Source of the DNA: a virus
Taxonomy: Duplodnaviria; Heunggongvirae; Uroviricota; Caudoviricetes
IMG/VR virus record: IMGVR_UViG_3300025133_000025
Reading direction: 5' to 3' (one strand)
DNA length: 64,000 nt
Positions 26,261 to 63,958 of the stretch are shown here, one piece after another (the first letter of the stretch is position 1; every line of letters starts with the position of its first letter). The notes under the pieces were generated by a model. That model saw only the letters and a list, made by a program, of their open reading frames with translations. It was not told where the DNA came from and did no database searches. The translations under genes were made by a program, and so were the position numbers.

Positions 26261-26295
26261 GGTTACTCCAGTTTTTGCGGTTTGATTGCCTATCT

Positions 26296-26325
26296 CTATT
26301 ATACAACTACATTTCTTTCACGGAG
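26296..26325 (-). promoter_or_regulatory. phage promoter motif (CTCCGT-N14-TGTATAAT)
   Basis: conserved architecture. Confidence 0.4.
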
Positions 26326-26344
26326 ATGCTCTCTGGCAAGCTCT

Positions 26345-26572: not shown

Positions 26573-26593
26573 TGTTTCTCGTGCATCTTGATT

Positions 26594-26673
26594 TGGTTGG
26601 GTTGGATGGATTTGAACCATCGTGCAACCGGCTACCCTTTCAACTGCTTATCAGGCGGAGGGGATACAACCCA
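26594..26673 (-). tRNA. tRNA-like element or degenerate tRNA, identity unresolved
   Basis: clear T arm GATGG-TTCAAAT-CCATC, acceptor TGGGTTG/CAACCCA and CCA, but no canonical D or anticodon arms could be folded by hand. Confidence 0.3.
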
Positions 26674-26678
26674 ATGAT

Positions 26679-42023: not shown

Positions 42024-42495
42024 GCTCTAAATCTTTCTTCATTCGTGTGAAATTATCCAAAAGTCGCCCCATTGCTTCCGATGTGTGTGCTTCACTCAAC
42101 TTTGCTTCATGCTCAGCCATATTTTGAAAATAGTGTGGATCGTCTAGCGTCACACCAAATGGCCTGCCATCAAGATGTTGTTTTACATGCGTAAGCTCAT
42201 GTACTAATATTCTAATATACATGAGGACATCATCTCTCTTACCTTTTCTAGCAGCTGTATAGAACTTCCCGAGCACCTCAACATTCACTTGACCGTCACG
42301 CATTATACGTGTCATTCCTCTTGTACTGCTGTTTACGAAATGCTTAACAATGTTGATTGTTAATGGCGCATCTCCAATCAGGCGCTGCACAATATGTGCA
42401 GTAAGAGCTAGCAGAAAATTATTACGCTCATGTCTGAGCTTGATGTGTCGTGAGAAGATTCTAATGCTGCGTTGCTGCTGCAGCAAGCTTCTCAC
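41989..42495 (-). CDS. HExxH zinc metallopeptidase-like protein
   Basis: LVHELTHVKQH motif. Confidence 0.5.
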   Translation of the reverse strand: MRSLLQQQRSIRIFSRHIKLRHERNNFLLALTAHIVQRLIGDAPLTINIVKHFVNSSTRGMTRIMRDGQVNVEVLGKFYTAARKGKRDDVLMYIRILVHELTHVKQHLDGRPFGVTLDDPHYFQNMAEHEAKLSEAHTSEAMGRLLDNFTRMKKDLEHEFELLDCTRK

Positions 42496-43705
42496 TCATA
42501 ATTCCCTTTCGGTGTTTAAAGTACTTTCTGGCGATCGTGCGGAAATACGATTCACCCCCCTCTGGAGAGTCAGGCTTCCAAAGACTATAAAGAGACCAAT
42601 GATCTTCACTGTTGTCAACACACTGGCGCAAATCTTCAACCATCTGCCAAGCAAGCGGCTGGATTTCACCGTCAAGGAGAGGCAGCATTCTTTCGAGGCG
42701 CCCACCCATATCGCATGACATGATGTACTTGTATGACAGTTTCGTCTGCACCATAAGATTGAGATAATCAATGAACTTAAACTTTACAAGGCGGTTGCCA
42801 AAATCAATGACGAAGCCCTCTTTGTTCTTAAACTGGCGATCTGTGATGAGATCACGAACAGCAGATTTATTCATCATGAACATCGGGGGTGTGGAAACCT
42901 TAAGTTCTCTAGCAATCCACTCCAAGCTTGCAATATCAAGCTTTTCACAATTATCGTCGTATGCTGCAAGTAAGAAAAGCTTCTTCTCATTGCCATAGTC
43001 AACATGGACCCTCGATTCAGGTGCAATTAACTCACAGATGATATTCATCACAGGCGGCATATTCAAGATTCGACGCTTTGCATTCATCGATTCAAACTGT
43101 CGCTTTGTTAGTAGTTCAAGACCAATGTCACTGTACTGCGTCTGGAGGCGGCCGCGAGTTGTGCAGCGAAGCTCACCATTGTGGACGAAGTACTCGACCA
43201 TAGCACCATCTTCCTTAGACCAAACAGGATGCAGCTCATCATCGAGCATGTCCCACTTGACCTCGGAGATTTCGTCGTAGTTAAAGAACTTTTCAAAGCC
43301 ACGAGAAACGAGCCTAACATCACCGATTGAATCATCACGATGAAGTGTCTCGCCACACGCTGCTCTTTCAGTTCTCTCATGCCTATCAAACTTAAACACC
43401 AATCCGCGGATCAGTCGCACAACCTCTGTCCAGCCACCCTCAATTGAGTGGAGAACTGCATGCGCCTGCTTGGTGTAATTCAAAAGAATGAGACTGTTCT
43501 CTTCATCGATGTCGAAGTCAAAGAGCTCATACGACTTAATTCCCCACTCATCAGGGATAGCCAGGAGGCGCCGGAACTCAGGCTCCAACTCCTTCTTCAC
43601 AAATCGCCAAGCGGCTTTCTTCTCTTCGTAGTTTGCAATCCGTGAAAGGATCATCGCAGCAATGGCTGTAATTGGACCATTGATGTTTTCAAAATCGGTT
43701 GACAT
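42461..43705 (-). CDS. RNA ligase, Rnl1 family (copy 2)
   Basis: GFEKFFN followed by motif I KEDGAMV (T4 Rnl1 KEDGSL); 414 aa. Confidence 0.65.
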   Translation of the reverse strand: MSTDFENINGPITAIAAMILSRIANYEEKKAAWRFVKKELEPEFRRLLAIPDEWGIKSYELFDFDIDEENSLILLNYTKQAHAVLHSIEGGWTEVVRLIRGLVFKFDRHERTERAACGETLHRDDSIGDVRLVSRGFEKFFNYDEISEVKWDMLDDELHPVWSKEDGAMVEYFVHNGELRCTTRGRLQTQYSDIGLELLTKRQFESMNAKRRILNMPPVMNIICELIAPESRVHVDYGNEKKLFLLAAYDDNCEKLDIASLEWIARELKVSTPPMFMMNKSAVRDLITDRQFKNKEGFVIDFGNRLVKFKFIDYLNLMVQTKLSYKYIMSCDMGGRLERMLPLLDGEIQPLAWQMVEDLRQCVDNSEDHWSLYSLWKPDSPEGGESYFRTIARKYFKHRKGIMSEKLAAAATQH

Positions 43706-47798: not shown

Positions 47799-48221
47799 TT
47801 ACTCACTTAATAAGTAGGCGTTAACACCTCTTTGATTCAGCAAATCTAACCCTGAAGAGTCACGATACATATTAATTGCGATGACTTCATCAATCTTTGC
47901 ATTCACGATTGCCCGGGCGCAAACAATGCACGGCGAATGTGTAACGTACATCTTGCGTGATTGTTGGTGCGTGTAGGGTAGCTTAATCAGCGCATTAATC
48001 TCAGCATGGATCGTTCCCTCGCCACCAGGCCTTTCGGAATCGACTGCATTTGCCCCACCGACTTCAAGCCCGTTATATCCCAAAGCAAGCACTGAAGAGT
48101 TATCAACAGACACAATTACAGCACCCACCTGCAAACGGAGTGAAACGCTGCGCTCAGCAATTGATAGTGCGAGCTCAGACCAGATTTGGTCCCAGGCTTT
48201 CCTACTTGGCAATAGAGGCAC
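47799..48221 (-). CDS. dCMP deaminase (ComEB/T4 cd-like)
   Basis: HAEINAL ... SPCIVCARAI zinc motifs. Confidence 0.7.
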   Translation of the reverse strand: MPLLPSRKAWDQIWSELALSIAERSVSLRLQVGAVIVSVDNSSVLALGYNGLEVGGANAVDSERPGGEGTIHAEINALIKLPYTHQQSRKMYVTHSPCIVCARAIVNAKIDEVIAINMYRDSSGLDLLNQRGVNAYLLSE

Positions 48222-48474
48222 CGGTTGAACTGTGACTCTGATCTAGCGCTTCAATATTGATCCCACGGGAATCGAGCATTCCATCAGTAGACCTTGGCAA
48301 GCGGGCCAGCTCACGCTGGTACCTTCTTTCAACCCGCAGACTGTCAAGTGCAATTCGAACGTTAACAATAAGCTCTGGTTCAGTAGCCACTGCGTTGAGC
48401 TCCAAAAGAAACCTACGATAGTTTGGTTTATTGCCCAGCATCGCTGCCAGCTGTTTTTCTGTAATTGAACTCAC
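48202..48474 (-). CDS. hypothetical protein
   Basis: ORF track 90 aa. Confidence 0.35.
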   Translation of the reverse strand: MSSITEKQLAAMLGNKPNYRRFLLELNAVATEPELIVNVRIALDSLRVERRYQRELARLPRSTDGMLDSRGINIEALDQSHSSTGASIAK

Positions 48475-48475
48475 T

Positions 48476-49468
48476 CTACTTATCCTTTTTGTTTAACGTT
48501 TTCTTCTTAAATTGAGCCACAAGGAGCTCAATCATTCCCCACCAAAAAGGATGAACAAGTTCACGGAGGGAAGCCAGATCGGGCATGTCCTGCCCGTTTT
48601 CGTAAGCGGCACGAAGGCCCTTCTCAATGACCAGCATTTCGTTGATGCTTGTCTCATTCTCAGTTTCAGATTCAGGAATATCGCCGATGTATGGCCCGTC
48701 ATACTCAAACATCTCAATAACGTCAGTCTCTTCAGCAATCCGCTTAAGCATATCGTAGTGCAGTTCATACACATGCAGGCTACCACTGTTATGATAATAC
48801 CACCCTGGCTTAATTCCAAGCTTAACAGCTAGAAGTTTTTGTGCAATCATGAAGAATGGCATATCATAGCTGATTCCCCTGATCAAATCGGACGATCGCA
48901 TGTTAACAATCATGTCAAGCCGACCATCACGAATGAAGAACTGGAGCGTCATTGTGCATGGAACATCAGGGTTGCTGAAGTCTGTTGTGTGAAACTTATC
49001 CTTAATATGGATTACAGCCTGCCGTGTGTCAGTGTCTTCCTGCAGCTGCGCGGCAACCTTCTGGAACTGCGACATCACGGCCACATCACCATCTTTGTTT
49101 GTCACAAGATCGTGGTCATACCAGATATGATAACCGTACGCTGAATTTAGAAGACCATCTTCACCTGCGCACTTCTTCCAGAATGAAGAATAATATGAAA
49201 CGTCATCTACTGCTTGACTTCCTGACAGGTACCACGCAAGTTCGCCAGCCATGTACAATCTACTAAACTTGCGGGCGCAACTAGCTAGAAAAACTTCTGA
49301 CTCATCAACCCAGATTGGTTCAAAGCTATAATTGATAAGCTCCTTAATTGGTAGCCCGCGGGGAGCTGCATCCTTCCCATGAAAGCGAATATCCCTGGCA
49401 GCTTTTCGAAATGCTTTTGTCATGCCTGACAGTGCTCTTGTTACTGCAGCTGTTTTCTTTTCCATCAA
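48476..49468 (-). CDS. thymidylate-synthase-fold enzyme; candidate deoxycytidylate 5-hydroxymethyltransferase
   Basis: ThyA core PCT.TLQFF, RSSDL.RG, H.Y; Asp (GISYDMPFFM) where ThyA has the dUMP-specifying Asn (GLPFNIASYAL). Confidence 0.7.
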   Translation of the reverse strand: MMEKKTAAVTRALSGMTKAFRKAARDIRFHGKDAAPRGLPIKELINYSFEPIWVDESEVFLASCARKFSRLYMAGELAWYLSGSQAVDDVSYYSSFWKKCAGEDGLLNSAYGYHIWYDHDLVTNKDGDVAVMSQFQKVAAQLQEDTDTRQAVIHIKDKFHTTDFSNPDVPCTMTLQFFIRDGRLDMIVNMRSSDLIRGISYDMPFFMIAQKLLAVKLGIKPGWYYHNSGSLHVYELHYDMLKRIAEETDVIEMFEYDGPYIGDIPESETENETSINEMLVIEKGLRAAYENGQDMPDLASLRELVHPFWWGMIELLVAQFKKKTLNKKDK

Positions 49469-50022
49469 AAACCCATCCTCATCAAATCAGCAATGATTCG
49501 TAGGGTAAGAACCTCTGAATCTTCGTACTCACTTACATCGTATGAGAGTAACTTGCATTGTGTGTGTCTGCCCTCAGCAAATTCTTTGTAAAGAGCGTTG
49601 ATTTTTCCCATATTCTCTTCAATGTGAGAAAATTCGTCCCTGTCATCAAGGCCGCTCAAGTCAGAGCGATGCAGAACAACGATGACTGCGCCGAGGCGCG
49701 CCCATTGTAGATCAATATTCTTAAAAACCTCTAAGTTAAATTCCCTATTGAACACCTGTGAGTAAACAAACTCACTCGGATATGTTCTATCAAAGAGTGC
49801 AGACACACCTGTCTGGTCAAGAAAATCAACAAAGAAGGGTTGCGACCAATCGAGGAGATTCTTGAAATACGAACCCTTACCGCCGCCCGTGAGATGGGCC
49901 TGTGACTCGCCCCCATGCTTGAAATAGGGAAGACCAAATGTGGCCTGCAGCTTTCGACTGATTGTCGTCTTCCAGTTCTTGTCTGCTCCCTCAATGATGA
50001 GAAGCCTTTGTTTTTCACTCAT
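49465..50022 (-). CDS. P-loop nucleotide-kinase-like protein (possible dNMP kinase for the modified nucleotide)
   Basis: degenerate Walker A LLIIEGADKNWKTT; operon position after the ThyA-fold gene. Confidence 0.45.
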   Translation of the reverse strand: MSEKQRLLIIEGADKNWKTTISRKLQATFGLPYFKHGGESQAHLTGGGKGSYFKNLLDWSQPFFVDFLDQTGVSALFDRTYPSEFVYSQVFNREFNLEVFKNIDLQWARLGAVIVVLHRSDLSGLDDRDEFSHIEENMGKINALYKEFAEGRHTQCKLLSYDVSEYEDSEVLTLRIIADLMRMGF

Positions 50023-51161
50023 GCCATAATTCCTGCGCTAGAAAGAAATTTCTCTACATTGAAGACATTGTTCCCTAGAACTGTCCCCAGGACTGCGTCG
50101 TAGTGCTCATCCCATTGCCTCTTTGTTTCAGCAGCATCGAAGGTGTCGTGCATACCAAACAAAAGACTTCCCCACACACTCTCAAACTCTAGTGGGTCTT
50201 CGTATCCAAGATTGTCATAGTAAAATTCATGACCATAGAACTCGTTGAATCCGATTGGTAATGACCCGCCGGCGAGGACTTCGAAGAGCCGCGGAGTAAT
50301 GTGCCCCTCTTCGAAATAAATATCCTTTGCGATCATTGGAACAAAGAGGGCACGTCGATGAATATGCGCAATCTCAGCCTTGGTAGCTTTACTGTGTTGT
50401 ATAACGCCCTGCATAACGACGGGATCATACTTTAGCCAATTACCATACACATGAATACGACCAGGATAATCACAGCCAAATTCTCTAATCCAGCGATCAA
50501 GTGCTCCATCGCGGTCGTAGTTATTACCAATATAGACCATAACTGCGCGAGGATCTTTACTGTCACCAAAGCCTGTGTATGGCAACTTGACATCAGACTT
50601 AGGCAGCGCTCTTAAGAATCTATCAGAGATAGGACAATGGCGTGTTGAAGTGCATGGAAACCCTGTTGGCATTTTTCCTGTGTCTTTATCACGAACACGA
50701 TGAACTGTTATGTTTGTTGTGTTGATGTTGCGCAGCCATTCTGGCATAGTATCAACAGTGAACTTGTAGTCTTCATCCCAGATAACAATTTGTGTATCAG
50801 TCGACTCAGCATAGTACGTGACTATGCCACGCTGGCGCTGCATAATATAGTCATCAGTGGGGCGGCCGTTGTGCCAGCGCCACCGTACAAGAAGATAATC
50901 AAGCCCAGGAAAATCGTTAGTTGGATCAGCAACAAACTTATTAAACATCATCTGGCGCATTGCTGGATAATAGAATTCAGGAACTGTATTGAAGATCCTG
51001 CTTTGACCTGCAAAGCGCTGGTCGAAGTAATGAACGGTGCCGCCGGCTTTCCAGCGCCACCATGACATAATCGATGCTGTCATCAACTCTTCACTATTGT
51101 CAGGGCGGTCAATGACTTTATCACCCCACTCATGAAAAACAAGCAGTCCTAGCGATTTCAT
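50019..51161 (-). CDS. hypothetical 380-aa protein, first gene of the modification operon
   Basis: ORF track; promoter motif 25 nt upstream; overlapping stops link it to the kinase and ThyA-fold genes. Confidence 0.5.
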   Translation of the reverse strand: MKSLGLLVFHEWGDKVIDRPDNSEELMTASIMSWWRWKAGGTVHYFDQRFAGQSRIFNTVPEFYYPAMRQMMFNKFVADPTNDFPGLDYLLVRWRWHNGRPTDDYIMQRQRGIVTYYAESTDTQIVIWDEDYKFTVDTMPEWLRNINTTNITVHRVRDKDTGKMPTGFPCTSTRHCPISDRFLRALPKSDVKLPYTGFGDSKDPRAVMVYIGNNYDRDGALDRWIREFGCDYPGRIHVYGNWLKYDPVVMQGVIQHSKATKAEIAHIHRRALFVPMIAKDIYFEEGHITPRLFEVLAGGSLPIGFNEFYGHEFYYDNLGYEDPLEFESVWGSLLFGMHDTFDAAETKRQWDEHYDAVLGTVLGNNVFNVEKFLSSAGIMA

Positions 51162-51183
51162 TCATGCATCCTTATATTGTAGT

Positions 51184-51214
51184 ATATTGTACCACTAGGT
51201 GACATACTCGGAAA
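51184..51214 (-). promoter_or_regulatory. phage promoter motif (TTTCCG-N14-TGGTACAAT)
   Basis: conserved architecture. Confidence 0.45.
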
Positions 51215-51678: not shown

Positions 51679-54600
51679 TTAATCCACCAATGTGTCAAGG
51701 CGGGATAGTCGTCCACCCCAAGGTGTTGAAAATCCCCAGTTATCGTCGTACTTCAGGCGCGCTGCAACAACAGCATTCTTTGTAAGCTTAGCTGTGTCGT
51801 ACTTTGCATTATATCCCCAGTATGTCATCCAGTGCAGATTACCATCACTACCCATCACACGTAGTTTTGCAAATGGCTTACCACGCTTTGTAGTGCGAAT
51901 GTTAACTTCACGAATAATAAACCAAACGACCTTACTCTCTGACACTAGATCTTCAATTTCACCCTCATAACCCTCAGGAATCTCATGATAATCATGAATA
52001 CCATCGACACCAAGCGCACTGAGCTTTTCAACTAGTTCGTCGTTTAAGATTAGATCAATGTTAACGCTGCCATAAACAGTCTCATAAAACTCAATCTGTT
52101 CCTCACGTGTCCAAGGTTCAACCTTACCGCGATACTCTTCAATAAGCTCATAAAAGCGTGCATGGCCATTACGTTCTGGTGAGCGCTTCAGCGGGCGTTT
52201 CTTAATCTCATCCCAGTGACCAACGATGACAGCATGCATGTGAGCATAATTATCGAACAGTTTACCCTCACCAATAATACTAAGGCTGTCGAATGCCTTA
52301 ATCTTAATCAACGCATCAACACAACCCTTATTCATCTTACTTGGCCAGAATGTATTATCATCGCGCCAGAACACTTCGTCAATTGCTCTGAACGGACGAT
52401 TGGCCATAATCTCCTCAACGGCCTTATCACCCACTCGCTTCACCGGACTAAAGGAGGACATTAGCTTTACGCCAACCTCATCCTCAATTGCTGTCCAGCC
52501 CCAGCCAGCCTGATTGATATCAGGCAGCACAACTTCGTAGCCAAACGACTTGGCCGTTGAGAATGCCCGTGCCTTCTTTTTATCACCCTTCTCAGAGTAT
52601 GTCTCAAGGAATGCAGCCATCCATTCGTTTGGATAGTATGTGAAGAGCCATGCGCAGATGTAGCTATCGAAAGCATAGGCAAGAGCGTGACTCTTATTAA
52701 AACCGTAGCCTGCAAAGAGTTCCATATCATCCCAAAGCTTTTGGGCCTTAAGCACATCTAAGCCAGCATTGACGCAGCCTTCAACAAACTGTAGATTCAG
52801 AGCACGCCTCTCTTGCTCTGCCTTACCTTTCCCATCCATAGATCGCTTAACGATGGCCTTTCGGAGACGGTCACAATCATTTAAATCCATGCCTGCCAGC
52901 TCGTGGGCCAGCTGCATCATCTGCTCCTGGAAAATGATTACGCCGTTTGTTGGCGACAACACTTTCTCAATTGCAGGATGATCGTATGTGAATGCTTCAC
53001 CTCTTCGACGATTAATATAGACCTTGTCAACACCGAGCTTTTTGGGTCCAATTTCAGCAGCCAGAGGACCTGGTCGATAGATTGACGTACCAGTGGCGAT
53101 GTCCAAGACCATCTCAGGCCGAATACGCTTAATTAGTTTTTGGGCGCCATCCTCTGTGAACTGGAAGATTGCAGGGAACTTTCCTTGCCAGTATACATTC
53201 TTTAGAACCTTCATATCAGCATCGTCAATGACGTCAGCGCGCAAGTTCTTATCGTAAAATGTACGTACTTCTGCAAAAGTTGGATTCGGATTACCCTGTG
53301 AAATGAGTACATTGCGGATCGCAAGCTCAATCACACGCAGTGTCTCAAGACCAAGGACATCAAACTTAATGAAACCAAGCTCTGGAAGATGCTTATAGTG
53401 AAGACCTTCTGTCCAAGGAGCCTGACACTCACCACGAATCTTGATCACTGGCATGGTGCCTTCCAGCTGGTCGTAAATTAGCACACCACCAGCGTGGCGG
53501 CTAATTGCCTTGAGTTGCTGGAAGAGGTCACGAATGTGCGCTGCAGCTTCCGGATAATCACAAACGTATTTCTGAAACGTGGGACTGTGCTCAAATGCCA
53601 AATCATATGTAAGATAGAAAAGGTTCTTGTCCATGCCCTTCTTCAAAACCTTTGCCTTGACCTCAGGTTCGACGCGCTTTGTTACAGCGTTAACTTCCTG
53701 ATAAGGAATATCAAAGAACTTTGAAACATCTTTAATCAAGGATTTCAGCTGGAGTCGGTTGTAGTTTGAGATTGTAATGACATTATCATCACCAAACTCA
53801 TCCCTCAAAATCTCAACTGCCAGCTCTTTACTTGCGACGTCCGAATCAATATCCGGAAAGCCCTTTCGAAATCTGCTAATGAACCTCTCGAAGAGTAGAC
53901 CATATTGAATTGGATCGAGCTCCGTAATATCAAGAAGATAACAAACTAATGACCCCGCACCAGAGCCTCGGCCCGGACCCATTAACATGCGCTCCTTTAG
54001 TCGGATTGCAATACGTTCGTAGCAAAGGAAGTAATCAGCAAAATCACGATCGCCAATTACACCAAGCTCAACTTCAAGACGGTCCCAATATTTGTTCTTG
54101 CCAGTATGTGGCGACTCCCTTAATGCCTGTTCACACTTCTCACGTAGGATCTGCTGGCTTGTCTTGGTAGGCGTTGCGTAGGTAAAAATCTTCGTCGCAG
54201 TATCGGGACTGACAGCGCCAATCTGCTGATGTGCAATATCATGTGTAATATCAATAGCATCCCAGATGCGCTTGTTCAAATCATTATGTTCAAACTGCTC
54301 GTAGTACTCAGGGTGCGCATCACGATACTTCTCCCAATAACGCCACATCTCTTCCCCATTCTTAGGATAGAGCTGGTACTGCATATCATCAATATCGTCA
54401 GGAAGATCGTCTAGTGTGTGTTCCTTCTTCCCCATCCATGAGATGCGCTTGTAGACCTCCCTGGCCCGCCACTTATCCGGTGACGGATAATGTGAATCTG
54501 CGGTTGCCACGAGAGGGATACCAAAGTCGATGCTTGCGCGGAGGAGCTGTTCATTGACCTGATGCTGGATGGGAATGTCGTTAAACTGTACTTCAAGGTA

Positions 54601-55260
54601 GAAGTTTTCCTGCCCGACTGCGTCAACGAATCTGTCGGCGAGATTAGCGAGCTCCAGTTGAATTTGCTCGGGTGATAGGTCATCATGGAAACCCTTCAAT
54701 ACCTCATATGAGAATGGGCCGCCAAGGCAAGCAGATGTTACGATGACGTCTTCTCCATGCTCCTTCAGCATATTAAAATCAAAACGTGGGAATCGATACA
54801 TTCCCTCCTTGTAACCGCGGGAGACCAGGGTAAAGACGTTCTTCAATCCCTTGGCAGATTTAGCCAGCGTTACAAGATGATGACGTCGATTGACCGGATT
54901 GAACCACTTGGCCTTCTTCGACTCCTCCTCATCCTCAAGTGCTACTTTTTCATCGTCTACAATATGGGCCTTTCGGAGTTTTGCATCCTCACGGTCTGCC
55001 TCCCACTGCTCAAGACTTGGATGAAAGTAGCCCTCAAAGCCATAAACTGGCTTAAAGGCAGAACCCAACTTCTTAGCATGAAGATACTGGTGTGGGAAGC
55101 CGTTCATATGACCGTGGTCAGTCAGGGCAAGTGCGTCCATCCCGTTTTGCAGTGCAAAATCAATGTGCTCTTCGGGTTTGCCGAATCCATCGCCTATCGA
55201 AAATCCACTGTGACCGTGGAGCCCGACGAATCTCGGATCTTTTCTATTTGTCATTCCCAA
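51679..55260 (-). CDS. dnaE: DNA polymerase III alpha subunit-like replicative polymerase with N-terminal PHP domain
   Basis: 1193 aa; FVGLHGHSGFSIGDG PHP motif; overall DnaE architecture. Confidence 0.85.
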   Translation of the reverse strand: MGMTNRKDPRFVGLHGHSGFSIGDGFGKPEEHIDFALQNGMDALALTDHGHMNGFPHQYLHAKKLGSAFKPVYGFEGYFHPSLEQWEADREDAKLRKAHIVDDEKVALEDEEESKKAKWFNPVNRRHHLVTLAKSAKGLKNVFTLVSRGYKEGMYRFPRFDFNMLKEHGEDVIVTSACLGGPFSYEVLKGFHDDLSPEQIQLELANLADRFVDAVGQENFYLEVQFNDIPIQHQVNEQLLRASIDFGIPLVATADSHYPSPDKWRAREVYKRISWMGKKEHTLDDLPDDIDDMQYQLYPKNGEEMWRYWEKYRDAHPEYYEQFEHNDLNKRIWDAIDITHDIAHQQIGAVSPDTATKIFTYATPTKTSQQILREKCEQALRESPHTGKNKYWDRLEVELGVIGDRDFADYFLCYERIAIRLKERMLMGPGRGSGAGSLVCYLLDITELDPIQYGLLFERFISRFRKGFPDIDSDVASKELAVEILRDEFGDDNVITISNYNRLQLKSLIKDVSKFFDIPYQEVNAVTKRVEPEVKAKVLKKGMDKNLFYLTYDLAFEHSPTFQKYVCDYPEAAAHIRDLFQQLKAISRHAGGVLIYDQLEGTMPVIKIRGECQAPWTEGLHYKHLPELGFIKFDVLGLETLRVIELAIRNVLISQGNPNPTFAEVRTFYDKNLRADVIDDADMKVLKNVYWQGKFPAIFQFTEDGAQKLIKRIRPEMVLDIATGTSIYRPGPLAAEIGPKKLGVDKVYINRRRGEAFTYDHPAIEKVLSPTNGVIIFQEQMMQLAHELAGMDLNDCDRLRKAIVKRSMDGKGKAEQERRALNLQFVEGCVNAGLDVLKAQKLWDDMELFAGYGFNKSHALAYAFDSYICAWLFTYYPNEWMAAFLETYSEKGDKKKARAFSTAKSFGYEVVLPDINQAGWGWTAIEDEVGVKLMSSFSPVKRVGDKAVEEIMANRPFRAIDEVFWRDDNTFWPSKMNKGCVDALIKIKAFDSLSIIGEGKLFDNYAHMHAVIVGHWDEIKKRPLKRSPERNGHARFYELIEEYRGKVEPWTREEQIEFYETVYGSVNIDLILNDELVEKLSALGVDGIHDYHEIPEGYEGEIEDLVSESKVVWFIIREVNIRTTKRGKPFAKLRVMGSDGNLHWMTYWGYNAKYDTAKLTKNAVVAARLKYDDNWGFSTPWGGRLSRLDTLVD

Positions 55261-55585: not shown

Positions 55586-56605
55586 TCACAGTCTAGTTGA
55601 ATTCTCTAGTCTTGTTCCACTTGAAATGCGTTGAAAAACTGCATTATCACGAAGGATTCGTAGATTAGATGCACCTGAATATGATAGGCCTGACCTCACG
55701 CCGGCTGCTAGCTCCAGCACGACATTTGCGACTGGGCCGGCGTAGGGCACTGTGGTGTTGATTCCTTCTGCAGCTATATGCGAGCTTGTTCGATTTGGAT
55801 TATCGTTGTATGCTTCCTTTGAAGCCATGCCCCGATATACTTTGAACTTACCGTCCGGTGTATCAATCACTGCCCCGGGAGTCTCGTCTGTCCCTGCTAG
55901 GAGCCCGCCAATCATGACAGCATCAGCGCCTGCTGCAAGTGCTTTCACGATATCACCTGACGTTTTGATTCCTCCGTCAGCAATTATTGACACGCGATTT
56001 TCAATTGATTCTTTAATGTTTAAGATTGCAGATAACTGAGGGAACCCATGACCTGTGACTGATCGCGTTGTGCAGACAGCACCAGGGCCTACACCAACCT
56101 TAATCACATTTGCTCCAGCGTCGTACAAGCGCCAGGCAGCTTCTGGTGTGGCAACATTTCCAGCTACGATTGTAAGTTCAGAGCGATCTTCTACAGAATC
56201 TCTAACTAATCTAATCATGGCAAGAACGTGCTGCGAATCGCCATGCGCAATATCAATCAAGAAGTGGCGAGCACCCGCAGCAATGGCATCCTTGATAAAA
56301 AGTAATTCGTTTGTACCAACGCCGATTGTGACAGGGAGACCAGCTTTTGCCCAAGCAAGCCTCTCCTCAAGTGTTGTAAAGCGATGCAGATATGCAAAGC
56401 CCCCGATGCCCTTTGCTGTCATTGCAGTAAACATTTCAATGCCTGAAATTGTATCCATGTTGGCCGCGATTATCGGCAACTCTAAACTTAGACCATTGAT
56501 GGATGTCTTCAGCGAAACTTGCCTACGTGATTGAACATTAGAAAATCGTGGCGAAAGAATTACATCATCATATGTAAATGCCTCTTGTGCAACAACAACT
56601 GCCAT
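55586..56605 (-). CDS. guaC: GMP reductase (IMPDH/GMPR family without CBS domains)
   Basis: [11 protein letters not shown] and [16 protein letters not shown] catalytic loop; 339 aa. Confidence 0.7.
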
Positions 56606-56827: not shown

Positions 56828-57430
56828 TTAACCTCGCTTTAAAGTGTAATCATACAACAACACATTGGCTGCTTGTGAAGTGTTGAGACAAACACCCATA
56901 CCAGGCATGGGAACCTCAACAATTTGCGAATTTAACAATAAGGCTGTTGGTACGCCAACAGCTTCATGCCCAACAATAATTGTCACAGGGCCAGTAGGCC
57001 ACTGGAAATTGTGTAAGCTAACAGCCCGCTCATGCAATTCAGCAGCAACAAGCGTGCGTCCAACTGACCTTATAAGAAAACTCTCTGGGTTACTGTACTG
57101 TTTAATGTCAAGATAGTCAACAGTTGAACCGCTTTTATTTTTTAGCACGTGATGCTTTGGCAAATGTCCGATAACATCAACACCCTCTGCGCCGAAGCAT
57201 GCAGCCGCCCGAATAACAAATCCAAGATTCTCATCAATACGAAAATTCACTGTTGCTATGCGTAGAGGAAAAACTTTTGCGTGTAAAAGTTTTGCGTCGA
57301 CACGCTGACGACGCGTAGGTCCGGAGCGTATGAATTTATCTTGTTGTAATTGACCCTTAGCCACAATAAATTGAGCATTTCTTACATGGGCAAACAAGAC
57401 CAATTGGTCTGTCATGCTCAAAACCATCAA
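56828..57430 (-). CDS. SPOUT (SpoU/TrmH-type) RNA 2'-O-methyltransferase
   Basis: IVGHEAVGV ... EVPMPGMGVCLNTSQAANVLLYD motifs. Confidence 0.65.
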   Translation of the reverse strand: MMVLSMTDQLVLFAHVRNAQFIVAKGQLQQDKFIRSGPTRRQRVDAKLLHAKVFPLRIATVNFRIDENLGFVIRAAACFGAEGVDVIGHLPKHHVLKNKSGSTVDYLDIKQYSNPESFLIRSVGRTLVAAELHERAVSLHNFQWPTGPVTIIVGHEAVGVPTALLLNSQIVEVPMPGMGVCLNTSQAANVLLYDYTLKRG

Positions 57431-57791
57431 GCAAACAAGGCTGCTCTGGCAATTTCTTCATGCTTTCATTAAATGAATCAAAGCTCTTATCCACCTGTGG
57501 CGAAACAAAGATATCCTTTATCAGCTCAAATGGATCGACAAAACGTTCTTGGGTGGGAACTCCCGAATGTTCAGCACGCGCGGCACCCAGAAACGCTTCG
57601 CCGATTTCTTTTGCAACTTCCCTTGACAATGTCCAAGCGCGGCTTCTATTAATCGTCTTCTCACTTAAAAAGATGTGACCATTACGAATATCAAGCTGTA
57701 AGATTGCGGTTTGTTCTGCAATGGATTCATTACCATCACCTGGTTTATAGGGAAATGTAACTTTAAAAGTTGTTAACTTTTCTGTTCCCAT
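57357..57791 (-). CDS. hypothetical protein
   Basis: ORF track 144 aa. Confidence 0.4.
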   Translation of the reverse strand: MGTEKLTTFKVTFPYKPGDGNESIAEQTAILQLDIRNGHIFLSEKTINRSRAWTLSREVAKEIGEAFLGAARAEHSGVPTQERFVDPFELIKDIFVSPQVDKSFDSFNESMKKLPEQPCLLDGFEHDRPIGLVCPCKKCSIYCG

Positions 57792-58318
57792 TAAAGTGCC
57801 TCAGAGAAAATGTCACCGCCACATGTGATTGATTGCTCAATAGCTGCACCAACAGCTTCACGAACAAAATCCTCAGGATATTGAACACCACCATCACGCT
57901 TGTACAGCAGCTTCATAGCAGTCATGGCATGCGTTCCACCGCTGCCACAAACAGCAATACCGTTCTTTCCGGGAAGCACAATCACTGTGCCCGCCCCTGA
58001 CCATGCTGCATCTTTTGTAACAAGCACAAAACCAAATCCATCAGCCTGGTCTGCCGGCATACCAAGATCAATGTTCTGTTGCTTAATCCAGTCAGCAAAC
58101 TTTGCAACATCATCTTTTGTATTCAATGGACCAGACCAATTAGAAATTTTCTTTCGCACAACTTCAAGTGTCGCAGCGAAACCTGCAATCCCAACGAGAA
58201 ATGATCCTGCATTAATCACCTTAGATCCCATGTTCAAAGGTGTGTCACCCAACGTGGCTTGTGAATCACTTGCAATTGCTGCGCCATTACTTCCTGCGAA
58301 ACCTGCAATAACTGTCAT
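57791..58318 (-). CDS. HslV-like Ntn-hydrolase peptidase
   Basis: M-TVIAGFAG ... SDSQATLG, with Thr right after the start as nucleophile; start trimmed to MTVIAG. Confidence 0.6.
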   Translation of the reverse strand: MTVIAGFAGSNGAAIASDSQATLGDTPLNMGSKVINAGSFLVGIAGFAATLEVVRKKISNWSGPLNTKDDVAKFADWIKQQNIDLGMPADQADGFGFVLVTKDAAWSGAGTVIVLPGKNGIAVCGSGGTHAMTAMKLLYKRDGGVQYPEDFVREAVGAAIEQSITCGGDIFSEAL

Positions 58319-58608
58319 TATTTTGCCCTCACTTGTTGCCATCCAGCATCTTCCATTTCACCTGTAAACGCAATGTGCGTTCGTGAAATTCGTGTGATCA
58401 CGCCCTCAGCAAGAAGACTATTGAGATGACGATAGAATGGTTGTAGCATTCCTTGATAGCCTGCGGCTGTTCGTCCAAAAAGTGTAGAAGACCATTTACT
58501 TTCTACATTTGCAATAGCATCGGCGCGCTTTGCAAGCTTACGTGTAGTTGCAACACCATTCAATTGCTCGAGTGCTGTTAGAATTGCATATTCATATTTG
58601 TTGTACAC
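58318..58608 (-). CDS. hypothetical protein (possible winged-helix)
   Basis: ORF track 96 aa. Confidence 0.4.
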   Translation of the reverse strand: MYNKYEYAILTALEQLNGVATTRKLAKRADAIANVESKWSSTLFGRTAAGYQGMLQPFYRHLNSLLAEGVITRISRTHIAFTGEMEDAGWQQVRAK

Positions 58609-59029: not shown

Positions 59030-59060
59030 TTATTATACTTCTTTGAATATAACGCGGAAT
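59030..59060 (-). promoter_or_regulatory. phage promoter motif (ATTCCG-N14-AAGTATAAT)
   Basis: conserved architecture. Confidence 0.4.
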
Positions 59061-59587
59061 TATTTTTTACCTGGCCAGCCACCTGGATAACAGTGTGTGC
59101 ACGAAAAGCTACCACACATTGTGTAACTACAATCATGCCACTCAATTGCGCTAGTAGGTGTTGGTAATTCAAGTGCTTGCTCTGTAGGTGGTTCCTGCGC
59201 GGGCAACTCTTCGTCAAGCCTCACATGCGTCACATCAACTTTCTCTTTAAAGGCTGCCATGAATTCGTCAGGCGTAACTTCGAGGAGAATTAAAACCTCA
59301 AGAAGAAAGCGTTGCGCATCAACAAATTCTTCGACAAACGCTGCACGATCCCAAGAGTCTTGGTCACTCCTCCATGGCTTCCCTGCCTTCAGATGTTGCA
59401 GTGCTTCAAAGATTTCTTCAACAGCACGAGTTCCAACATCTCTGAGGAAAGCGAATGATTCCTTCTCATTCATGTCCAGCGGAAACTCAGGAAACCCTGA
59501 CACTTTCTGCAGGCGGCGCATGAAGCTGGTCTGTAACATGAACATGTCATGCAGCATATCATCGCCCTCATGCGCCCCATTATTCAT
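59060..59587 (-). CDS. possible MazG-like all-alpha NTP pyrophosphohydrolase
   Basis: RAVEEIFEALQHLKAGKPW helix typical of MazG/dimeric dUTPase-like proteins; tentative. Confidence 0.35.
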   Translation of the reverse strand: MNNGAHEGDDMLHDMFMLQTSFMRRLQKVSGFPEFPLDMNEKESFAFLRDVGTRAVEEIFEALQHLKAGKPWRSDQDSWDRAAFVEEFVDAQRFLLEVLILLEVTPDEFMAAFKEKVDVTHVRLDEELPAQEPPTEQALELPTPTSAIEWHDCSYTMCGSFSCTHCYPGGWPGKK

Positions 59588-60221: not shown

Positions 60222-60438
60222 GTTGCACTACAAAGAAAGTATGAAGATTATAATCAGTGTCTTCTGCGCCGAAGAAGAAACCTTCGCCTGTCTCTTCGGA
60301 ACAATCAACCGCTGTGTTAACAAAATCGATCTTTTTGTAATAGCCAGGCTCTGTTCCATCGTCATCATAGATGACGATATCGAGCTCACGATCAAGCTTG
60401 GCAAGCATACTAATTACTTCTTTGACTTTCATCCGCAC
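60214..60438 (-). CDS. hypothetical protein
   Basis: ORF track 74 aa. Confidence 0.4.
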   Translation of the reverse strand: MRMKVKEVISMLAKLDRELDIVIYDDDGTEPGYYKKIDFVNTAVDCSEETGEGFFFGAEDTDYNLHTFFVVQHG

Positions 60439-63005
60439 TTACTCCAGCCGCAATCGCACTTTACACAATTCTCTTCGTAGATTAAGAAGCTGCTACCGCA
60501 ACTCAGGCACTCAGGATCAACTGCTTTTGCAACTTCAACCTGCTGCTCTTGTGTTAAGTACTTCTTGAGAATTCTTGACAAAATTGTTGAAAAATCAAAC
60601 ATGCTGCCCTGGCATTTAGCAAGCTGCTGTACAATAAACCTAGGTGGTGTTCCATGGCGTAATGATGTTGACAGCAACCTTGTAAATGCTGACTGCTCAT
60701 CAGTCTGCAACAGATCAGCTATATTTTCAAGAACAACGATTTCATTACCATCTAATACATTGTAAATCCCAGATGAATCCTTGGAAACAACGTAGTTTTC
60801 ATCTCTACGGATAACAAAATCATCAGGCGGATGTGCACCAGCAAAAACTTCGTACAGTTCACCATCAAGAAGTCCAACAACAACAAGCCATGGAACACCT
60901 TTCACACGAGCCCTGTGAAGCTCTGCAGGGAGAATCCTCCCTCGTTTCGGGGCCTTTCGGCGTGAGATCTTTGCAGGTGCCTCTTTTACACCGACAGCTT
61001 CAAGGACTTGAATCTTTGATCCATCTCTATAGACTGTCACTGATTTACAACCTAACTGATAAGCAAGCTTGTACGCATCCTCAACATCCTCAACAGTTGC
61101 GCTATTTGGAAGATTGATTGTCTTACTTACGCCACTATCATTATGCCTTTGAAAAACCGCGAGCATCTTAATATGGTCTTCCACACTAATCTCAGATGCT
61201 GCCTCAAAGTAGTCAGGAACTTGAAGAATGTGTTTGATTTCATCCATCGGAAGATCTTCATCAAGATACTCCAAAAACGATTCCCACAAGCCTTCGCTGC
61301 GAAGCCACTCGCCAAATGCATAAACAGTATTAACATAACTGCCGACTCGACTGTTCTGCCTAAAGGCAAGGAAGTAGCCGGGTTCGCAACCTGTTGTGAA
61401 TCCAGTGATCGTTCCCCCTGTCCCAACAGGGGCTTGCGTCAAACCCGTAATATGACGGATGCCGTGCTTAGCAATTGCTTCTTGCACATCAGCAGGAAGC
61501 CTCTTGAAAAATGCACTCTGACTATATCCCTCAAAGTCAAATACCGGAAACGGGCCTTTCTCTTTCGCAAGCTCAATAGACTCCCAATATACTTCTTCCT
61601 TGAAGGTTCGAAGAATTGACTCTGCAACTGCTCGTCCCTGAATTGAGCTGTACGCTTCACCCATAAGCATGAGCGCATCAGCCATACCTGTTGTTCCCAG
61701 ACCAATTCGGCGCTCCTTCTCACGCATTGTATCAATGCCCTCAATGCCGACATGCGTCTTATCAGCAACACATTCAAGCCATTGGACACCAATGCGCACT
61801 ATACGCTTAAACTCATCAATGTCAAAGGTGCCCTGCTTTACAAACGAAGCAATAACAATTGAGCTCAGAATACACGACGCATCAACAGGCATCCACTGTT
61901 CACCACATGGGTTGCAGCTTGACATTGGGTGACAGTATTCACCGTTGTGGAAAGCGCGAATAATATCTGTGAATGCAATGCCAGGGCAGCCGTCTTCCCA
62001 GGCAGCTTGTGCCATTTCATGAAACCACTCACCAGTTGTTTGGCGATATGGGCCGCGGATAAGTTCAAGATTAGCATTAAAGAAAGGTGCCTCTGCAGAC
62101 GCAAGAAGCTCTGCATCTTCGATATTCGGTGCTGTCACTGTACGATTAGTGTACGATCCAGACCGCTTATCAAGAACCTTATAATCGTATAAGAACCACT
62201 CGTCTTCACCCCAGAATGTTGACCATTCATCTTTTCCACCGGCCAGTACATCATCCATAAAAATGTCAGGTACCCCTGTTGTGATGTTAAACCTCTGGCC
62301 TGAATAATCATGCTTCCACTGGAATCTTGCAAACGCAGCTTCATCTGTTATGTCAGCAAACTTTCGAATATTTTCCCAATTGTTATCAGCCTTAAAGTGA
62401 ATCCATTCCTTTAGGCTTGGGTGTCGAGCGTCAAGCGTGCCCATATTTGCGCCGGATCGATTTCCACCCTGCTGGATATTCTTACTCGCGTGGGAGGTGT
62501 CAATGAGGAATCCAATAGGGCCTGACGCACGAGCGGATACAGTTTTACATACAGAAATTCTTGGTCTAAGGTTTGACCAATCAAGTCCTGTGCCGCCGCC
62601 CTGACGCTGGACTTTAAAGTGTTGCCTTTTGAATTCGCTAATTGAATCACTGTCATCTTCAATCCCTAATACAAAGCAGTTTGAATAATTCTTTGTACCC
62701 GTTCCTGCCTGAGCCATTTGCCGGCCTGCGGGAAGAAGTTGCTTCATACACATCGCCTTAAGGATCTGTACACGCAACTCTACATCATCAACAATTTCAT
62801 CTGTTATACGAACAAAGCAATCGTAAATATGGTGCTCAACTGGCTGGCCGCTAGGACCCTTCAGCGCATATCTGGCCTTCCACACGTCGTAGTGCTTTGG
62901 GTTGATAAAGTAATATTCGTCAATTGTGCGTTTGCCATCGGCTTCGAGGGGCCTAGAGAAATCTAACTTATTAACAACTTCGTAAAGAACTTCCCTGCCT
63001 ACCAT
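60429..63005 (-). CDS. nrdJ: class II (adenosylcobalamin-dependent) ribonucleotide reductase with C-terminal Cys zinc ribbon
   Basis: 858 aa; NCFV and QGGNRSGA motifs; C-terminal CLSCGSS ... CVKCDCGWSKC. Confidence 0.8.
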   Translation of the reverse strand: MVGREVLYEVVNKLDFSRPLEADGKRTIDEYYFINPKHYDVWKARYALKGPSGQPVEHHIYDCFVRITDEIVDDVELRVQILKAMCMKQLLPAGRQMAQAGTGTKNYSNCFVLGIEDDSDSISEFKRQHFKVQRQGGGTGLDWSNLRPRISVCKTVSARASGPIGFLIDTSHASKNIQQGGNRSGANMGTLDARHPSLKEWIHFKADNNWENIRKFADITDEAAFARFQWKHDYSGQRFNITTGVPDIFMDDVLAGGKDEWSTFWGEDEWFLYDYKVLDKRSGSYTNRTVTAPNIEDAELLASAEAPFFNANLELIRGPYRQTTGEWFHEMAQAAWEDGCPGIAFTDIIRAFHNGEYCHPMSSCNPCGEQWMPVDASCILSSIVIASFVKQGTFDIDEFKRIVRIGVQWLECVADKTHVGIEGIDTMREKERRIGLGTTGMADALMLMGEAYSSIQGRAVAESILRTFKEEVYWESIELAKEKGPFPVFDFEGYSQSAFFKRLPADVQEAIAKHGIRHITGLTQAPVGTGGTITGFTTGCEPGYFLAFRQNSRVGSYVNTVYAFGEWLRSEGLWESFLEYLDEDLPMDEIKHILQVPDYFEAASEISVEDHIKMLAVFQRHNDSGVSKTINLPNSATVEDVEDAYKLAYQLGCKSVTVYRDGSKIQVLEAVGVKEAPAKISRRKAPKRGRILPAELHRARVKGVPWLVVVGLLDGELYEVFAGAHPPDDFVIRRDENYVVSKDSSGIYNVLDGNEIVVLENIADLLQTDEQSAFTRLLSTSLRHGTPPRFIVQQLAKCQGSMFDFSTILSRILKKYLTQEQQVEVAKAVDPECLSCGSSFLIYEENCVKCDCGWSKCG

Positions 63006-63958
63006 TATTGATTGGCCTTCTTCCTAGCAAACGCCTGCTTCATAATCTCAAACTTTGATGTCTCATCAAGCGGTCCGAGATCCCTGACTTCTTGATTTTC
63101 ATCAGGAAGCAAGAACTCAATTGTTGATGACGATGTATTCATCATGATTGGATAGATAATACCGTCGCGGCCTGATCTGTTCTTGGCCAGTAACGACCTT
63201 CCACCTCCATCCATCTTGTCACGATTTGTTCTTGAAAGAGTTAAGATAACATCTGCAATTTGAGCCTTGGCGTACGCTTCACCAATTGCTGAAATTGTGA
63301 CAAGCTCTGCATCATGGGCGCCACGATTTGCCTGTGAGGCGGTCCAGATTGGAAGTTCTAATTCATCACCCAACGCACGCAACTCTTCGTACAGCAGTTC
63401 AAGCTCATATCTCTTTGCTTCATATTGCTTTGATGAACGGAGAAGATCAGCGTAATCAACGATGATAAGATCGGGAGTAAACTCACGCGATTTCAATCGC
63501 TCAATATGCGCTGATAATTGCGAAATGCCTGCCTTCTTGGTTGGATATTTCTTAATAATGAGCTTTCCCGTGACCTCCTTCAAACGATCCTTCAGAATCG
63601 GCACAAGGCCTGGAACATCTTCAAATTTAGCTCCGAGTAGATTTGCATCATACCGTCGAGCAACAATCGATTCACGAAGCTCAAGAGTGTAGTGAAGGAC
63701 GTTGAAGCCCTGTTGGATTGCAGCAGAGCCTAGAGCAACAAGAAAGTGTGACTTACCAGCACCTGTTGGTGCAATAACAACACCAAGCTCGCCCTTTCCA
63801 AGGCCACCCTGCATCTCATTATTGATGATTGGCCATGGCGTCGGAACTGGGCAGCGGTCAGCATCATCTTGCATACGCATGAAAATTTCATCTTCGCCAT
63901 CATATTCATGCCCGACGTTTTTCTCAACGCCGAGTTCAACAGCATGTTTCAAGCGCAT
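63005..63958 (-). CDS. DnaB-family replicative helicase (RecA-like core)
   Basis: Walker A APTGAGKSHFLV; DnaB C-terminal-domain-like motifs. Confidence 0.7.
   Translation of the reverse strand: MRLKHAVELGVEKNVGHEYDGEDEIFMRMQDDADRCPVPTPWPIINNEMQGGLGKGELGVVIAPTGAGKSHFLVALGSAAIQQGFNVLHYTLELRESIVARRYDANLLGAKFEDVPGLVPILKDRLKEVTGKLIIKKYPTKKAGISQLSAHIERLKSREFTPDLIIVDYADLLRSSKQYEAKRYELELLYEELRALGDELELPIWTASQANRGAHDAELVTISAIGEAYAKAQIADVILTLSRTNRDKMDGGGRSLLAKNRSGRDGIIYPIMMNTSSSTIEFLLPDENQEVRDLGPLDETSKFEIMKQAFARKKANQ

Follow-up and report, generated by a model that had tools for sequence, protein, structure and literature searches.

Does a phage operon that encodes a deoxycytidine monophosphate (dCMP) deaminase, an enzyme of the thymidylate synthase (ThyA) fold, a nucleotide kinase, and a 380-aa protein serve thymidylate supply, or does it replace and further modify the cytosines of the phage DNA? 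The question is raised by positions 47799-51214 of a 64,000-nt stretch from a virus of the Caudoviricetes (IMG/VR record IMGVR_UViG_3300025133_000025), which we analyzed as a whole and refer to as the window. Our analyses make it likely that this operon encodes a T4-like pathway of cytosine replacement and hypermodification, assembled from divergent parts, in an uncultivated phage with a DnaE-type DNA polymerase. A preliminary description, made from the sequence alone, had proposed the architecture of a phage that replaces dC with 5-hydroxymethyl-dC (5hm-dC). As far as computation goes, this proposal is supported by (i) the signature residues of the ThyA-fold enzyme, (ii) the resemblance of the 380-aa protein to the DNA beta-glucosyltransferase (BGT) of T4, and (iii) the linkage of the two genes at 73/80 viral loci. 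The operon comprises five closely spaced open reading frames (ORFs), all on the minus strand, which are given here from the ORF list of the window.

51161..50019, minus strand: 380-aa gene, predicted GT-B glycosyltransferase
50022..49465, minus strand: 185-aa kinase gene
49468..48476, minus strand: 330-aa ThyA-fold enzyme gene, with a TTG start
48474..48202, minus strand: 90-aa ORF
48221..47799, minus strand: 140-aa gene, predicted dCMP deaminase

This layout agrees with the operon of deaminase, ThyA-fold enzyme, kinase, and 380-aa protein that had been described, including its overlapping stops: among the first three genes, the stop of one overlaps the start of the next by 4 nt with the coordinates given above. 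For the ThyA-fold gene, public gene calls begin at the following ATG (49465), from which the protein is 329 aa long (P0005) and the overlap shrinks to 1 nt. The deaminase, said to lie just downstream, is indeed present, but the 90-aa ORF, which the preliminary description did not mention, stands between it and the ThyA-fold gene and overlaps the long start of the deaminase gene by 20 nt.

To the Pfam family Thymidylat_synt (PF00303), the ThyA-fold enzyme matches with an E-value of 2.1e-23, and its best matches in the PDB are MilA (1.8e-24) and the T4 dCMP hydroxymethylase (3e-15). The segments DVPCTMTLQFF, MRSSDLIRG, and GISYDMPFFM are all found in the enzyme, the first two of which hold the PC...QFF and RSSDL.RG core that had been read from the sequence. 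The further claim, that an Asp occupies the specificity position, was examined in two kinds of alignment, both of which place Asp, not Asn, at Asn177 of ThyA or Asp179 of the T4 enzyme. Pairwise HMMER alignments match the Asp of ISYDM to Asp179 of the T4 dCMP hydroxymethylase, to the Asp of MilA, and to the Asn of a bacterial ThyA. The same placement at Asn177 was obtained when the 120 closest homologues from the database were aligned together with E. coli ThyA and T4 gp42; the T4 gp42 segment 54-226 is consistent in this alignment with the PDB pairwise alignment.

Further residues are given in E. coli ThyA numbering. Glu58, Cys146, Arg166, Ser167, Asp169, His207, and Tyr209 are retained in the query. 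Asp stands at position 177 (N177D) in the query and in 120/120 homologues, and likewise at position 143 (L143D; DVPC in the query), the latter as in T4 gp42 and M6 gp58, whereas H147T and Q165M are features that the query shares with T4 gp42. The query retains Asp169, which lies in the MRSSDL motif, and so do 120/120 close homologues and 73/73 homologues linked to the transferase gene; Ser167 and Arg126 are retained in the query and in 120/120 homologues. As a control, the same alignment procedure returned Asn at 177 and Asp at 143 for the dUMP hydroxymethylase M6 gp58.

These residues can be read with published rules. N177D marks dCMP as the substrate, according to in vivo assays in a 2026 paper; an acidic residue (Asp or Glu) at 143 admits water and leads to a hydroxymethyl rather than a methyl product; and D169N marks the flavin-dependent 5-hydroxy-dCMP synthases, being present in every such enzyme tested (PMC13326640). 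The 5-hydroxy-dCMP synthases RB69 gp48 and DLP3 gp80 carry N177D as well (PMC13326640), and therefore an Asp at 177 is not sufficient to make a hydroxymethylase. The earlier statement that this Asp defines dCMP hydroxymethylases thus holds for the preference for dCMP, but not for the reaction, for which further residues are needed. The structural study of MilA associates Ser167 and Arg126 with deoxynucleotides, and Ala and Lys at these positions with ribonucleotides (PMC5175136). Because the query combines N177D, L143D, Asp169, and the Ser167/Arg126 pair, it carries under these rules the full signature of a 5hm-dCMP synthase, and the ThyA-fold enzyme is most likely, as judged from its residues, a dCMP hydroxymethylase.

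The second element that carries the argument is the 380-aa protein, which the preliminary description had left as a possible further modifier of the base and had recommended for profile comparison with glycosyltransferases. Taken alone, the protein gave only a sub-threshold match in Pfam and no match in PHROGs, in NCBIfam, in a single-sequence search of the PDB, in tblastn against cultured phages, or in a scan of IMG/VR. A word-indexed search of 5.8 billion proteins returned three other clusters only, and an exhaustive HMMER search with a four-sequence profile collected 241 representatives of the family. This four-sequence profile matched nothing in the PDB, whereas an 81-sequence family profile matched the T4 BGT with an E-value of 1.8e-12 over BGT residues 140-338, the next match being at 0.014. 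Arg217, Arg291, and Glu294, which are invariant or nearly so in the family, align with Arg191, Arg269, and Glu272 of BGT, which we take to be the residues that contact uridine diphosphate (UDP). Moreover, hhalign gave the family a probability of 96-97% against the T4 BGT, against the BGT of Enterococcus phage VFW, and against both together.

The fold leads to the same family. An AlphaFold (AF2) model built from the 81-sequence alignment reached a predicted local distance difference test score (pLDDT) of 88.2 and a predicted template-modelling score (pTM) of 0.89; a model from the four-sequence alignment (pLDDT 51) was discarded. The highest TM-scores that Foldseek found with the good model were those of BGT entries (0.59/0.63 for T4 BGT), and the modelled fold is a two-domain GT-B fold closest to that of BGT, with ∼12% identity in the structural alignment. 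In the BFVD, a fold search with the model returned generic viral GT-B matches only. By profile and by model, then, the 380-aa protein is a GT-B glycosyltransferase and a very distant homologue of the T4 BGT, and its family, which Pfam, PHROGs, NCBIfam, and single-sequence searches miss, is recognizable through its profile link to this enzyme. We predict that it glycosylates 5-hydroxymethylcytosine (5hmC) in DNA, an acceptor that its gene linkage supports and that, like the sugar donor, we infer. Among uncultivated phages with a DnaE-type polymerase, this family seems to be common.

This linkage was assessed in two samples of viral loci. The first was selected by the transferase, through an IMG/VR scan with a 10-sequence profile (the pattern scan could not use the 81-sequence alignment because of its diversity), and yielded 80 loci, in which neighbors were counted within 8 kb on the same strand. 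A ThyA-fold gene lies near the transferase gene at 73/80 loci, a DnaE gene at 73/80, a dCMP deaminase gene at 58/80, a kinase gene at 56/80, and a gene for a MazG-like pyrophosphatase at 18/80. The ThyA-fold genes so linked encode Asp at 177 in 73/73 cases, Asp at 169 in 73/73, and Asp at 143 in 71/73. The order of the genes is shuffled between lineages, and the linkage persists. The second, reverse sample was selected by the ThyA-fold gene, with a search pattern that included the Asp, and comprised 58 loci with full flanks; the kinase was present in 51 of them, and the transferase family in only 27. The transferase thus depends more on the hydroxymethylase than the latter does on it (73/80 versus 27/58), and the asymmetry between kinase and transferase is what one would expect of a kinase that works in nucleotide synthesis and a transferase that modifies the product once it is in DNA.

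In two closer relatives, L001 and L002, the transferase and kinase genes are adjacent. In L001 (JGI 3300041086 Ga0452216_014835), the cluster of transferase, kinase, and hydroxymethylase genes is interleaved with sugar-nucleotide genes at 2896-3876 and 6220-7152, which encode a UDP-glucuronate decarboxylase (6e-87 to human UXS1) and a UDP-sugar 4-epimerase of the WbgU/WbpP type (4e-64). These genes fit a sugar-transfer role of the transferase, and they suggest that UDP-xylose or UDP-arabinose is the donor for DNA glycosylation in L001, by a route other than the arabinofuranose pathway of RB69 and DLP3. Among cultured phages, the transferase profile matches two proteins, each encoded near an Asp-type ThyA-like gene: in Enterococcus phage VFW the annotated beta-glucosyltransferase (4e-15), and in Ralstonia phage RsoM2USA a protein at 1e-9. 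The DNA of VFW and of VPE25 was reported to resist bisulfite conversion (PMC4999554).

The kinase matches phrog_761, thymidylate kinase, at 1.4e-8. A single-sequence search of the PDB gave no match for it, whereas the profile of its family matches YorR of SPbeta (2AXP; 8e-19), deoxyguanosine kinase (1e-6), and thymidylate kinases (1e-5), and Pfam Thymidylate_kin matches 11/26 family members. In tblastn against 50,697 phage records, the kinase found only 'thymidylate kinase' genes of Microbacterium phages. Asp14, Lys18, and a DR motif (Asp78-Arg79) are invariant in the family. A DNA kinase of the type of 5-hydroxymethyluracil DNA kinase (5-HMUDK) was rejected as an identity, as the family hidden Markov model (HMM) scores only 3.5 bits against M6 gp54 (5-HMUDK), which is no match. 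Owing to its matches to YorR, deoxynucleoside kinases, and thymidylate kinases, together with this low score, the best reading of the sequence is a nucleotide-level enzyme of the thymidylate/deoxynucleoside kinase group. From its family membership, linkage, and context, the kinase is predicted to phosphorylate 5hm-dCMP to 5hm-dCDP.

The 140-aa protein matches Pfam dCMP_cyt_deam_1 (PF00383) at 3.7e-18 and phrog_174, dCMP deaminase, at 2.5e-34. It displays HAE and PCxxC zinc motifs and scores below the cut-off of the NCBIfam ComEB equivalog (63.6 versus 219 bits). We predict from these matches a dCMP deaminase of the ComEB/T4 Cd type, which would convert dCMP to dUMP for dTMP synthesis. The preceding 90-aa ORF, also annotated as a gene on the public contig, has no match in Pfam, PHROGs, or NCBIfam, and no homologue in the 80 related loci. 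Two genes upstream of the operon bear on the same pathway.

51679..55260, minus strand: 1193-aa DnaE-type DNA polymerase III alpha, directly upstream of the operon (tblastn, Pfam)
59060..59587, minus strand: 175-aa MazG-like nucleoside triphosphate pyrophosphohydrolase, 8 kb upstream (PHROGs)

The polymerase is 27-31% identical to DnaE-like polymerases of cultured phages (tblastn), and its Pfam domains on the public contig are PHP, DNA_pol3_alpha, and related ones. The MazG-like protein is named by PHROGs only (phrog_12184, nucleotide pyrophosphohydrolase, 4.1e-12; phrog_173, 1.1e-10) and has no match in Pfam, NCBIfam, or the PDB. By analogy with T4 gp56, presumably a member of the same all-alpha NTP pyrophosphatase superfamily, it may be a candidate dCTPase that excludes dCTP.

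From the folds, homologies, diagnostic residues, and gene linkage that we observed, we infer substrates, products, a sugar, and a completeness of replacement that together would give the following pathway. The ThyA-fold enzyme, to judge by its active-site residues, would convert dCMP, methylene-tetrahydrofolate, and water to 5hm-dCMP; the kinase, going by its family and linkage, would convert 5hm-dCMP to the diphosphate, and a nucleoside diphosphate kinase of the host would then make 5hm-dCTP. The DnaE polymerase of the phage would insert 5hm-dC in place of dC, and the MazG-like pyrophosphatase may remove dCTP. Like T4 Cd, the dCMP deaminase would divert a part of the dCMP pool to dUMP and dTMP. 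Once the DNA is replicated, its hydroxymethyl groups would receive a sugar, taken from a UDP-sugar by the 380-aa GT-B enzyme. Since no sugar-nucleotide enzymes are encoded in the window, UDP-glucose is the likely donor.

Several observations weigh against this pathway or against parts of it. At the position of Arg127, which binds phosphate in ThyA, the ThyA-fold enzyme has a Gln, as do 18/73 linked homologues, and its top sequence match in the PDB, MilA, prefers CMP. No thymidylate synthase that would consume the dUMP of the deaminase is visible in the 64-kb window. In the transferase, the N-terminal (acceptor) domain matches BGT by fold and not by sequence profile, and the equivalent of the catalytic Asp100 is placed by topology only: the nearly invariant Asp129 and Asp131 follow strand 4, like Asp100 in BGT, a residue whose importance is supported by the title of PDB entry 1nzd. 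The P-loop of the kinase (residues 12-19) reads GADKNWKT, with a Trp instead of the usual Gly before the Lys, the Walker A motif of the family being otherwise GxDxxGK[ST]. This P-loop is not a sequence error, because a relative from another sample that is 66% identical (P0126) carries it too; at the position of the Trp, another relative (L006) has Tyr, and YorR of SPbeta (2AXP) has Phe. The role of the MazG-like protein as a dCTPase is a guess, and the modification of the virion DNA is a computational prediction.

Four other explanations have to be set against cytosine replacement and glycosylation. Deaminase, ThyA, and kinase activities, taken in this order, are also the canonical de novo pathway to dTTP, and the library labels 'dCMP deaminase', 'thymidylate synthase', and 'thymidylate kinase' spell it out; the deaminase would then make dUMP for a true thymidylate synthase and a thymidylate kinase, and the 380-aa protein would be unrelated. 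That no second enzyme is visible would suit such a function: the ThyA-fold ORF is the sole ThyA HMM match among window ORFs of at least 60 aa, and Pfam scans of nearly all coding-strand window ORFs found no ThyX, as the preliminary description had said. However, the residues at 177, 143, 147, and 165 are Asp, Asp, Thr, and Met, as in the T4 dCMP hydroxymethylase; the query reaches 67.5 bits with the best-scoring NCBIfam ThyA model, whose cut-off is 327, all NCBIfam ThyA cut-offs being at least 108 bits; and the ThyA-fold gene is linked to the gene of a BGT-like transferase. We therefore rejected a thymidylate synthase identity, in keeping with the earlier view that the operon is not a simple thymidylate synthesis operon, and regard plain dTTP supply as very improbable. 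No better can be said for hypermodification of thymidine, as in M6, ViI, SP10, and PhiW-14, where 5hm-dU is made and 5-HMUDK activates its hydroxymethyl group in DNA for substitution, or for a variant in which the adjacent deaminase would turn 5hm-dCMP into 5hm-dUMP. M6-like phages, too, encode a dCMP deaminase and a P-loop kinase with a ThyA homologue beside a polymerase gene. Against this stand the Asp at the specificity position, where the M6 dUMP hydroxymethylase has Asn, and the kinase profile, which barely scores with M6 gp54 and instead matches kinases of small-molecule nucleotides and nucleosides; no gene for a DNA-glycosylase-fold transferase, a pyridoxal phosphate (PLP) enzyme, or a radical S-adenosylmethionine (SAM) enzyme was found in the window.

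A flavin-dependent 5-hydroxy-dCMP synthase of the RB69, DLP3, and RL38JI type is a closer contender, as these enzymes combine N177D with L143E and are followed by DNA glycosyltransferases (PMC13326640), and as the product cannot be read with certainty from sequence; the transferase would then glycosylate 5-hydroxycytosine through an ether bond. This identity was rejected for want of the D169N mark, Asp169 being retained in the query as well as in its close and its transferase-linked homologues, and T4 BGT, the specific homologue of the transferase, acts on 5hmC, which leaves the explanation with a slim chance. The last explanation accepts 5hm-dC and concerns the acceptor alone: the GT-B enzyme might act on the host envelope, a phage protein, or a small molecule, its place in the operon being incidental. 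GT-B folds are promiscuous, and the acceptor domain lacks a sequence-level match to BGT; yet T4 BGT is the sole significant PDB match of the profile, and 91% of the viral family members lie at most 8 kb from a same-strand Asp-type ThyA-fold gene despite the shuffled gene order. We hold a non-DNA acceptor to be unlikely. A bolder reading of the transferases themselves, to which we give a minor though appreciable chance, is that they form a large family of DNA glycosyltransferases (at least 241 representatives at 50% identity) that is missing from the four profile libraries used here and whose members attach undescribed sugars to 5hmC. For L001, it would predict xylosyl- or L-arabinosyl-5-hydroxymethylcytosine, made by a route unlike that of RB69 and DLP3, and in the phage of the window the sugar and its linkage could likewise be new.

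Cytosine replacement followed by glycosylation thus remains our favored reading of the operon. A conserved promoter had been described at 51184..51214. We found there the sequence TTTCCGAGTATGTCACCTAGTGGTACAAT (51214..51186, upstream of the 380-aa gene), and a search of the window with the pattern TTTCCG-N{15,19}-TAYAAT returned 8 occurrences versus 0.04 expected, with a spacer of 17 nt in all of them.

868-896, plus strand: TTTCCG-N17-TAYAAT copy
8344-8372, plus strand: TTTCCG-N17-TAYAAT copy
15615-15643, minus strand: TTTCCG-N17-TAYAAT copy
19360-19388, minus strand: TTTCCG-N17-TAYAAT copy
24315-24343, minus strand: TTTCCG-N17-TAYAAT copy
28256-28284, minus strand: TTTCCG-N17-TAYAAT copy
33908-33936, minus strand: TTTCCG-N17-TAYAAT copy
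51186-51214, minus strand: TTTCCG-N17-TACAAT, promoter-like motif 24 nt 5' of the ATG of the 380-aa gene

All 8 copies are oriented like the local coding sequences, whose direction changes near 13 kb. Because of this number and orientation, the motif is a genuine, phage-specific promoter-like consensus with an unusual -35 element. The promoter that had been described is hence real, but its conservation is confined to this phage, as the motif was not found at the loci of related phages. Scans for terminators and for sigma-70 promoters stayed at chance level; as no terminator above chance was found 3' of the deaminase gene, transcription may continue past 47799. The window is part of a metagenomic contig of ∼176-179 kb. 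Neither the operon nor the first 25 kb gave a megablast match among the 50,697 phage records, and the phage is without a close cultured relative.

Other genes of the window concern nucleotide metabolism and replication. A second cytidine-deaminase-like protein of 108 aa (5063-5389, plus strand) has HAE and PCxxC motifs and matches Pfam dCMP_cyt_deam_1 at 2.9e-7; its best NCBIfam models are cytidine deaminases, below their cut-off, and its gene is on the opposite strand arm, far from the operon. An NT5C-type 5'(3')-deoxyribonucleotidase (34371-34964, minus strand; Pfam 3.2e-11) could reshape the dNMP pools alongside the modification pathway. A protein like IMP dehydrogenase/GMP reductase (55586-56605, minus strand) matches Pfam IMPDH at 5.9e-88 and is below all NCBIfam equivalog cut-offs; in L001, the gene that immediately follows the ThyA-fold gene encodes a homologue with 43% identity, and 5/80 transferase loci contain homologues. 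The replication arm further encodes, on the minus strand, a SpoU-family RNA methylase (56828-57430), an HslV-like peptidase (57791-58342), a homologue of the ribonucleotide reductase large subunit (60429-63005, with a weak C-terminal TSCPD match), and a DnaB-like helicase (63005-63958).

Elsewhere in the window, 15 tRNA genes (17646-27737, minus strand) lie among small ORFs, with specificities for Lys, Pro, Ala, Ile, Arg, Tyr, His, Thr, Ser, Val, Leu (two), Met, Asn, and Gln. A set of RNA-repair genes comprises two T4 Rnl1-like RNA ligases (10505-11719, plus strand, and 42461-43705, minus strand), an AAA_33-type P-loop kinase (9970-10536, plus strand), a HAD_SAK_2 phosphatase domain (12395-13045, plus strand), and an RlaP nucleotidyltransferase (34961-35935, minus strand). 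Together with the tRNA cluster, these genes suggest a countermeasure to host anticodon nucleases. An 880-aa protein (30645-33287, minus strand) resembles the eukaryotic major vault protein (MVP; Pfam MVP_shoulder 9.7e-22, Vault_3 2.4e-8, and Band_7 1e-6), and its residues 492-872 match major vault proteins in the PDB at 4e-18. A pattern scan of IMG/VR found no close relative of it; preprints describe MVP homologues from phages and bacteria (10.1101/2023.11.10.566534, 10.1101/872010).

If our reading of the operon is correct, the standard annotation labels (thymidylate synthase, thymidylate kinase, and hypothetical protein) would miss cytosines that are probably fully modified and glycosylated. 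Such DNA would resist restriction enzymes and probably some CRISPR effectors, with effects on the sequencing, cloning, restriction, and CRISPR targeting of the phage DNA, and the modification would bear on host range and defense evasion across a clade of uncultivated DnaE-type phages. Cytosine glycosylation of this type is already known as a strategy against restriction; the enzymes seen here are very divergent. Relatives with sugar-nucleotide genes of their own are starting points in the search for new DNA sugars and for 5hmC-labeling enzymes.

Comparison with known systems places the operon close to T4, whose gp42, gp1 dNMP kinase, gp56 dCTPase, Cd, and BGT make up the same logical set of activities, the dCMP deaminase included. 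The ThyA-fold enzyme shares Asp177, Asp143, Thr147, and Met165 with gp42, and the transferase is homologous to BGT by profile and fold. The identities are very low, however, at ∼12% to BGT (structural) for the transferase and with an E-value of 3e-15 to gp42 for the ThyA-fold enzyme. Further differences are that the window hydroxymethylase has an extra ∼85 aa at its C terminus, like MilA; that the kinase was assigned as YorR-like (thymidylate/deoxynucleoside kinase group); that the candidate dCTPase is an uncharacterized MazG-like protein; and that the genes stand in one operon beside a DnaE-type polymerase gene, rather than scattered in a T4-type genome.

Phages VPE25 and VFW (Vipetofemvirus) have a cluster of DnaE, a ThyA-like enzyme, a dUTPase, and a beta-glucosyltransferase, and thus have the DnaE-type polymerase in common with the window. 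The ThyA-like gene of VFW encodes Asp143, Asp169, and Asp177, and the BGT gene that our transferase profile detects is two genes downstream of it. In contrast to the window protein, which has no tblastn match in cultured phages, the VFW transferase is 42% identical to T4 BGT. VFW is also a siphovirus of 86 kb with a Gram-positive host, and the two phages are not closely related in sequence, their ThyA-like enzymes being ∼33% identical.

In RB69, DLP3, and RL38JI, likewise, a modified dCMP is made by a ThyA homologue that combines N177D with an acidic residue 143, is passed on to the polymerase by a cognate kinase, and is then decorated by DNA glycosyltransferases (PMC13326640). Their enzymes carry D169N and use flavin and O2, whereas the window enzyme keeps Asp169, and folate-dependent hydroxymethylation is therefore predicted for it; the arabinose-activation genes of these phages are absent here. 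MilA, from mildiomycin biosynthesis (PDB 5JNH/5B6D), has a similar length, is cytosine-specific through its Asp, performs hydroxymethylation chemistry, and is the best structure match, as given above. It belongs to an antibiotic gene cluster, in contrast to the phage DNA replication context here, and its Ala176 and Lys133 favor the ribonucleotide. A CMP-specific enzyme of the MilA/BcmA type was accordingly rejected as an identity, as the window enzyme has Ser and Arg in place of this Ala and Lys, as in deoxynucleotide enzymes.

M6, ViI, SP10, and PhiW-14, too, encode a ThyA-family hydroxymethylase with Asp143, a P-loop kinase, and a dCMP deaminase near replication genes. In M6, however, Asn177 reads uracil, and the kinase, which is unmatched by the kinase family of the window, acts on DNA; downstream, phages of this type have DNA-glycosylase-fold, PLP, and radical-SAM enzymes, where the window has a glycosyltransferase. 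The kind of system is thus already known, from T4 and from recent work that mined ThyA homologues of phages and DNA glycosyltransferases on a large scale, and the operon is a new, very divergent example of this known type, not a new type.

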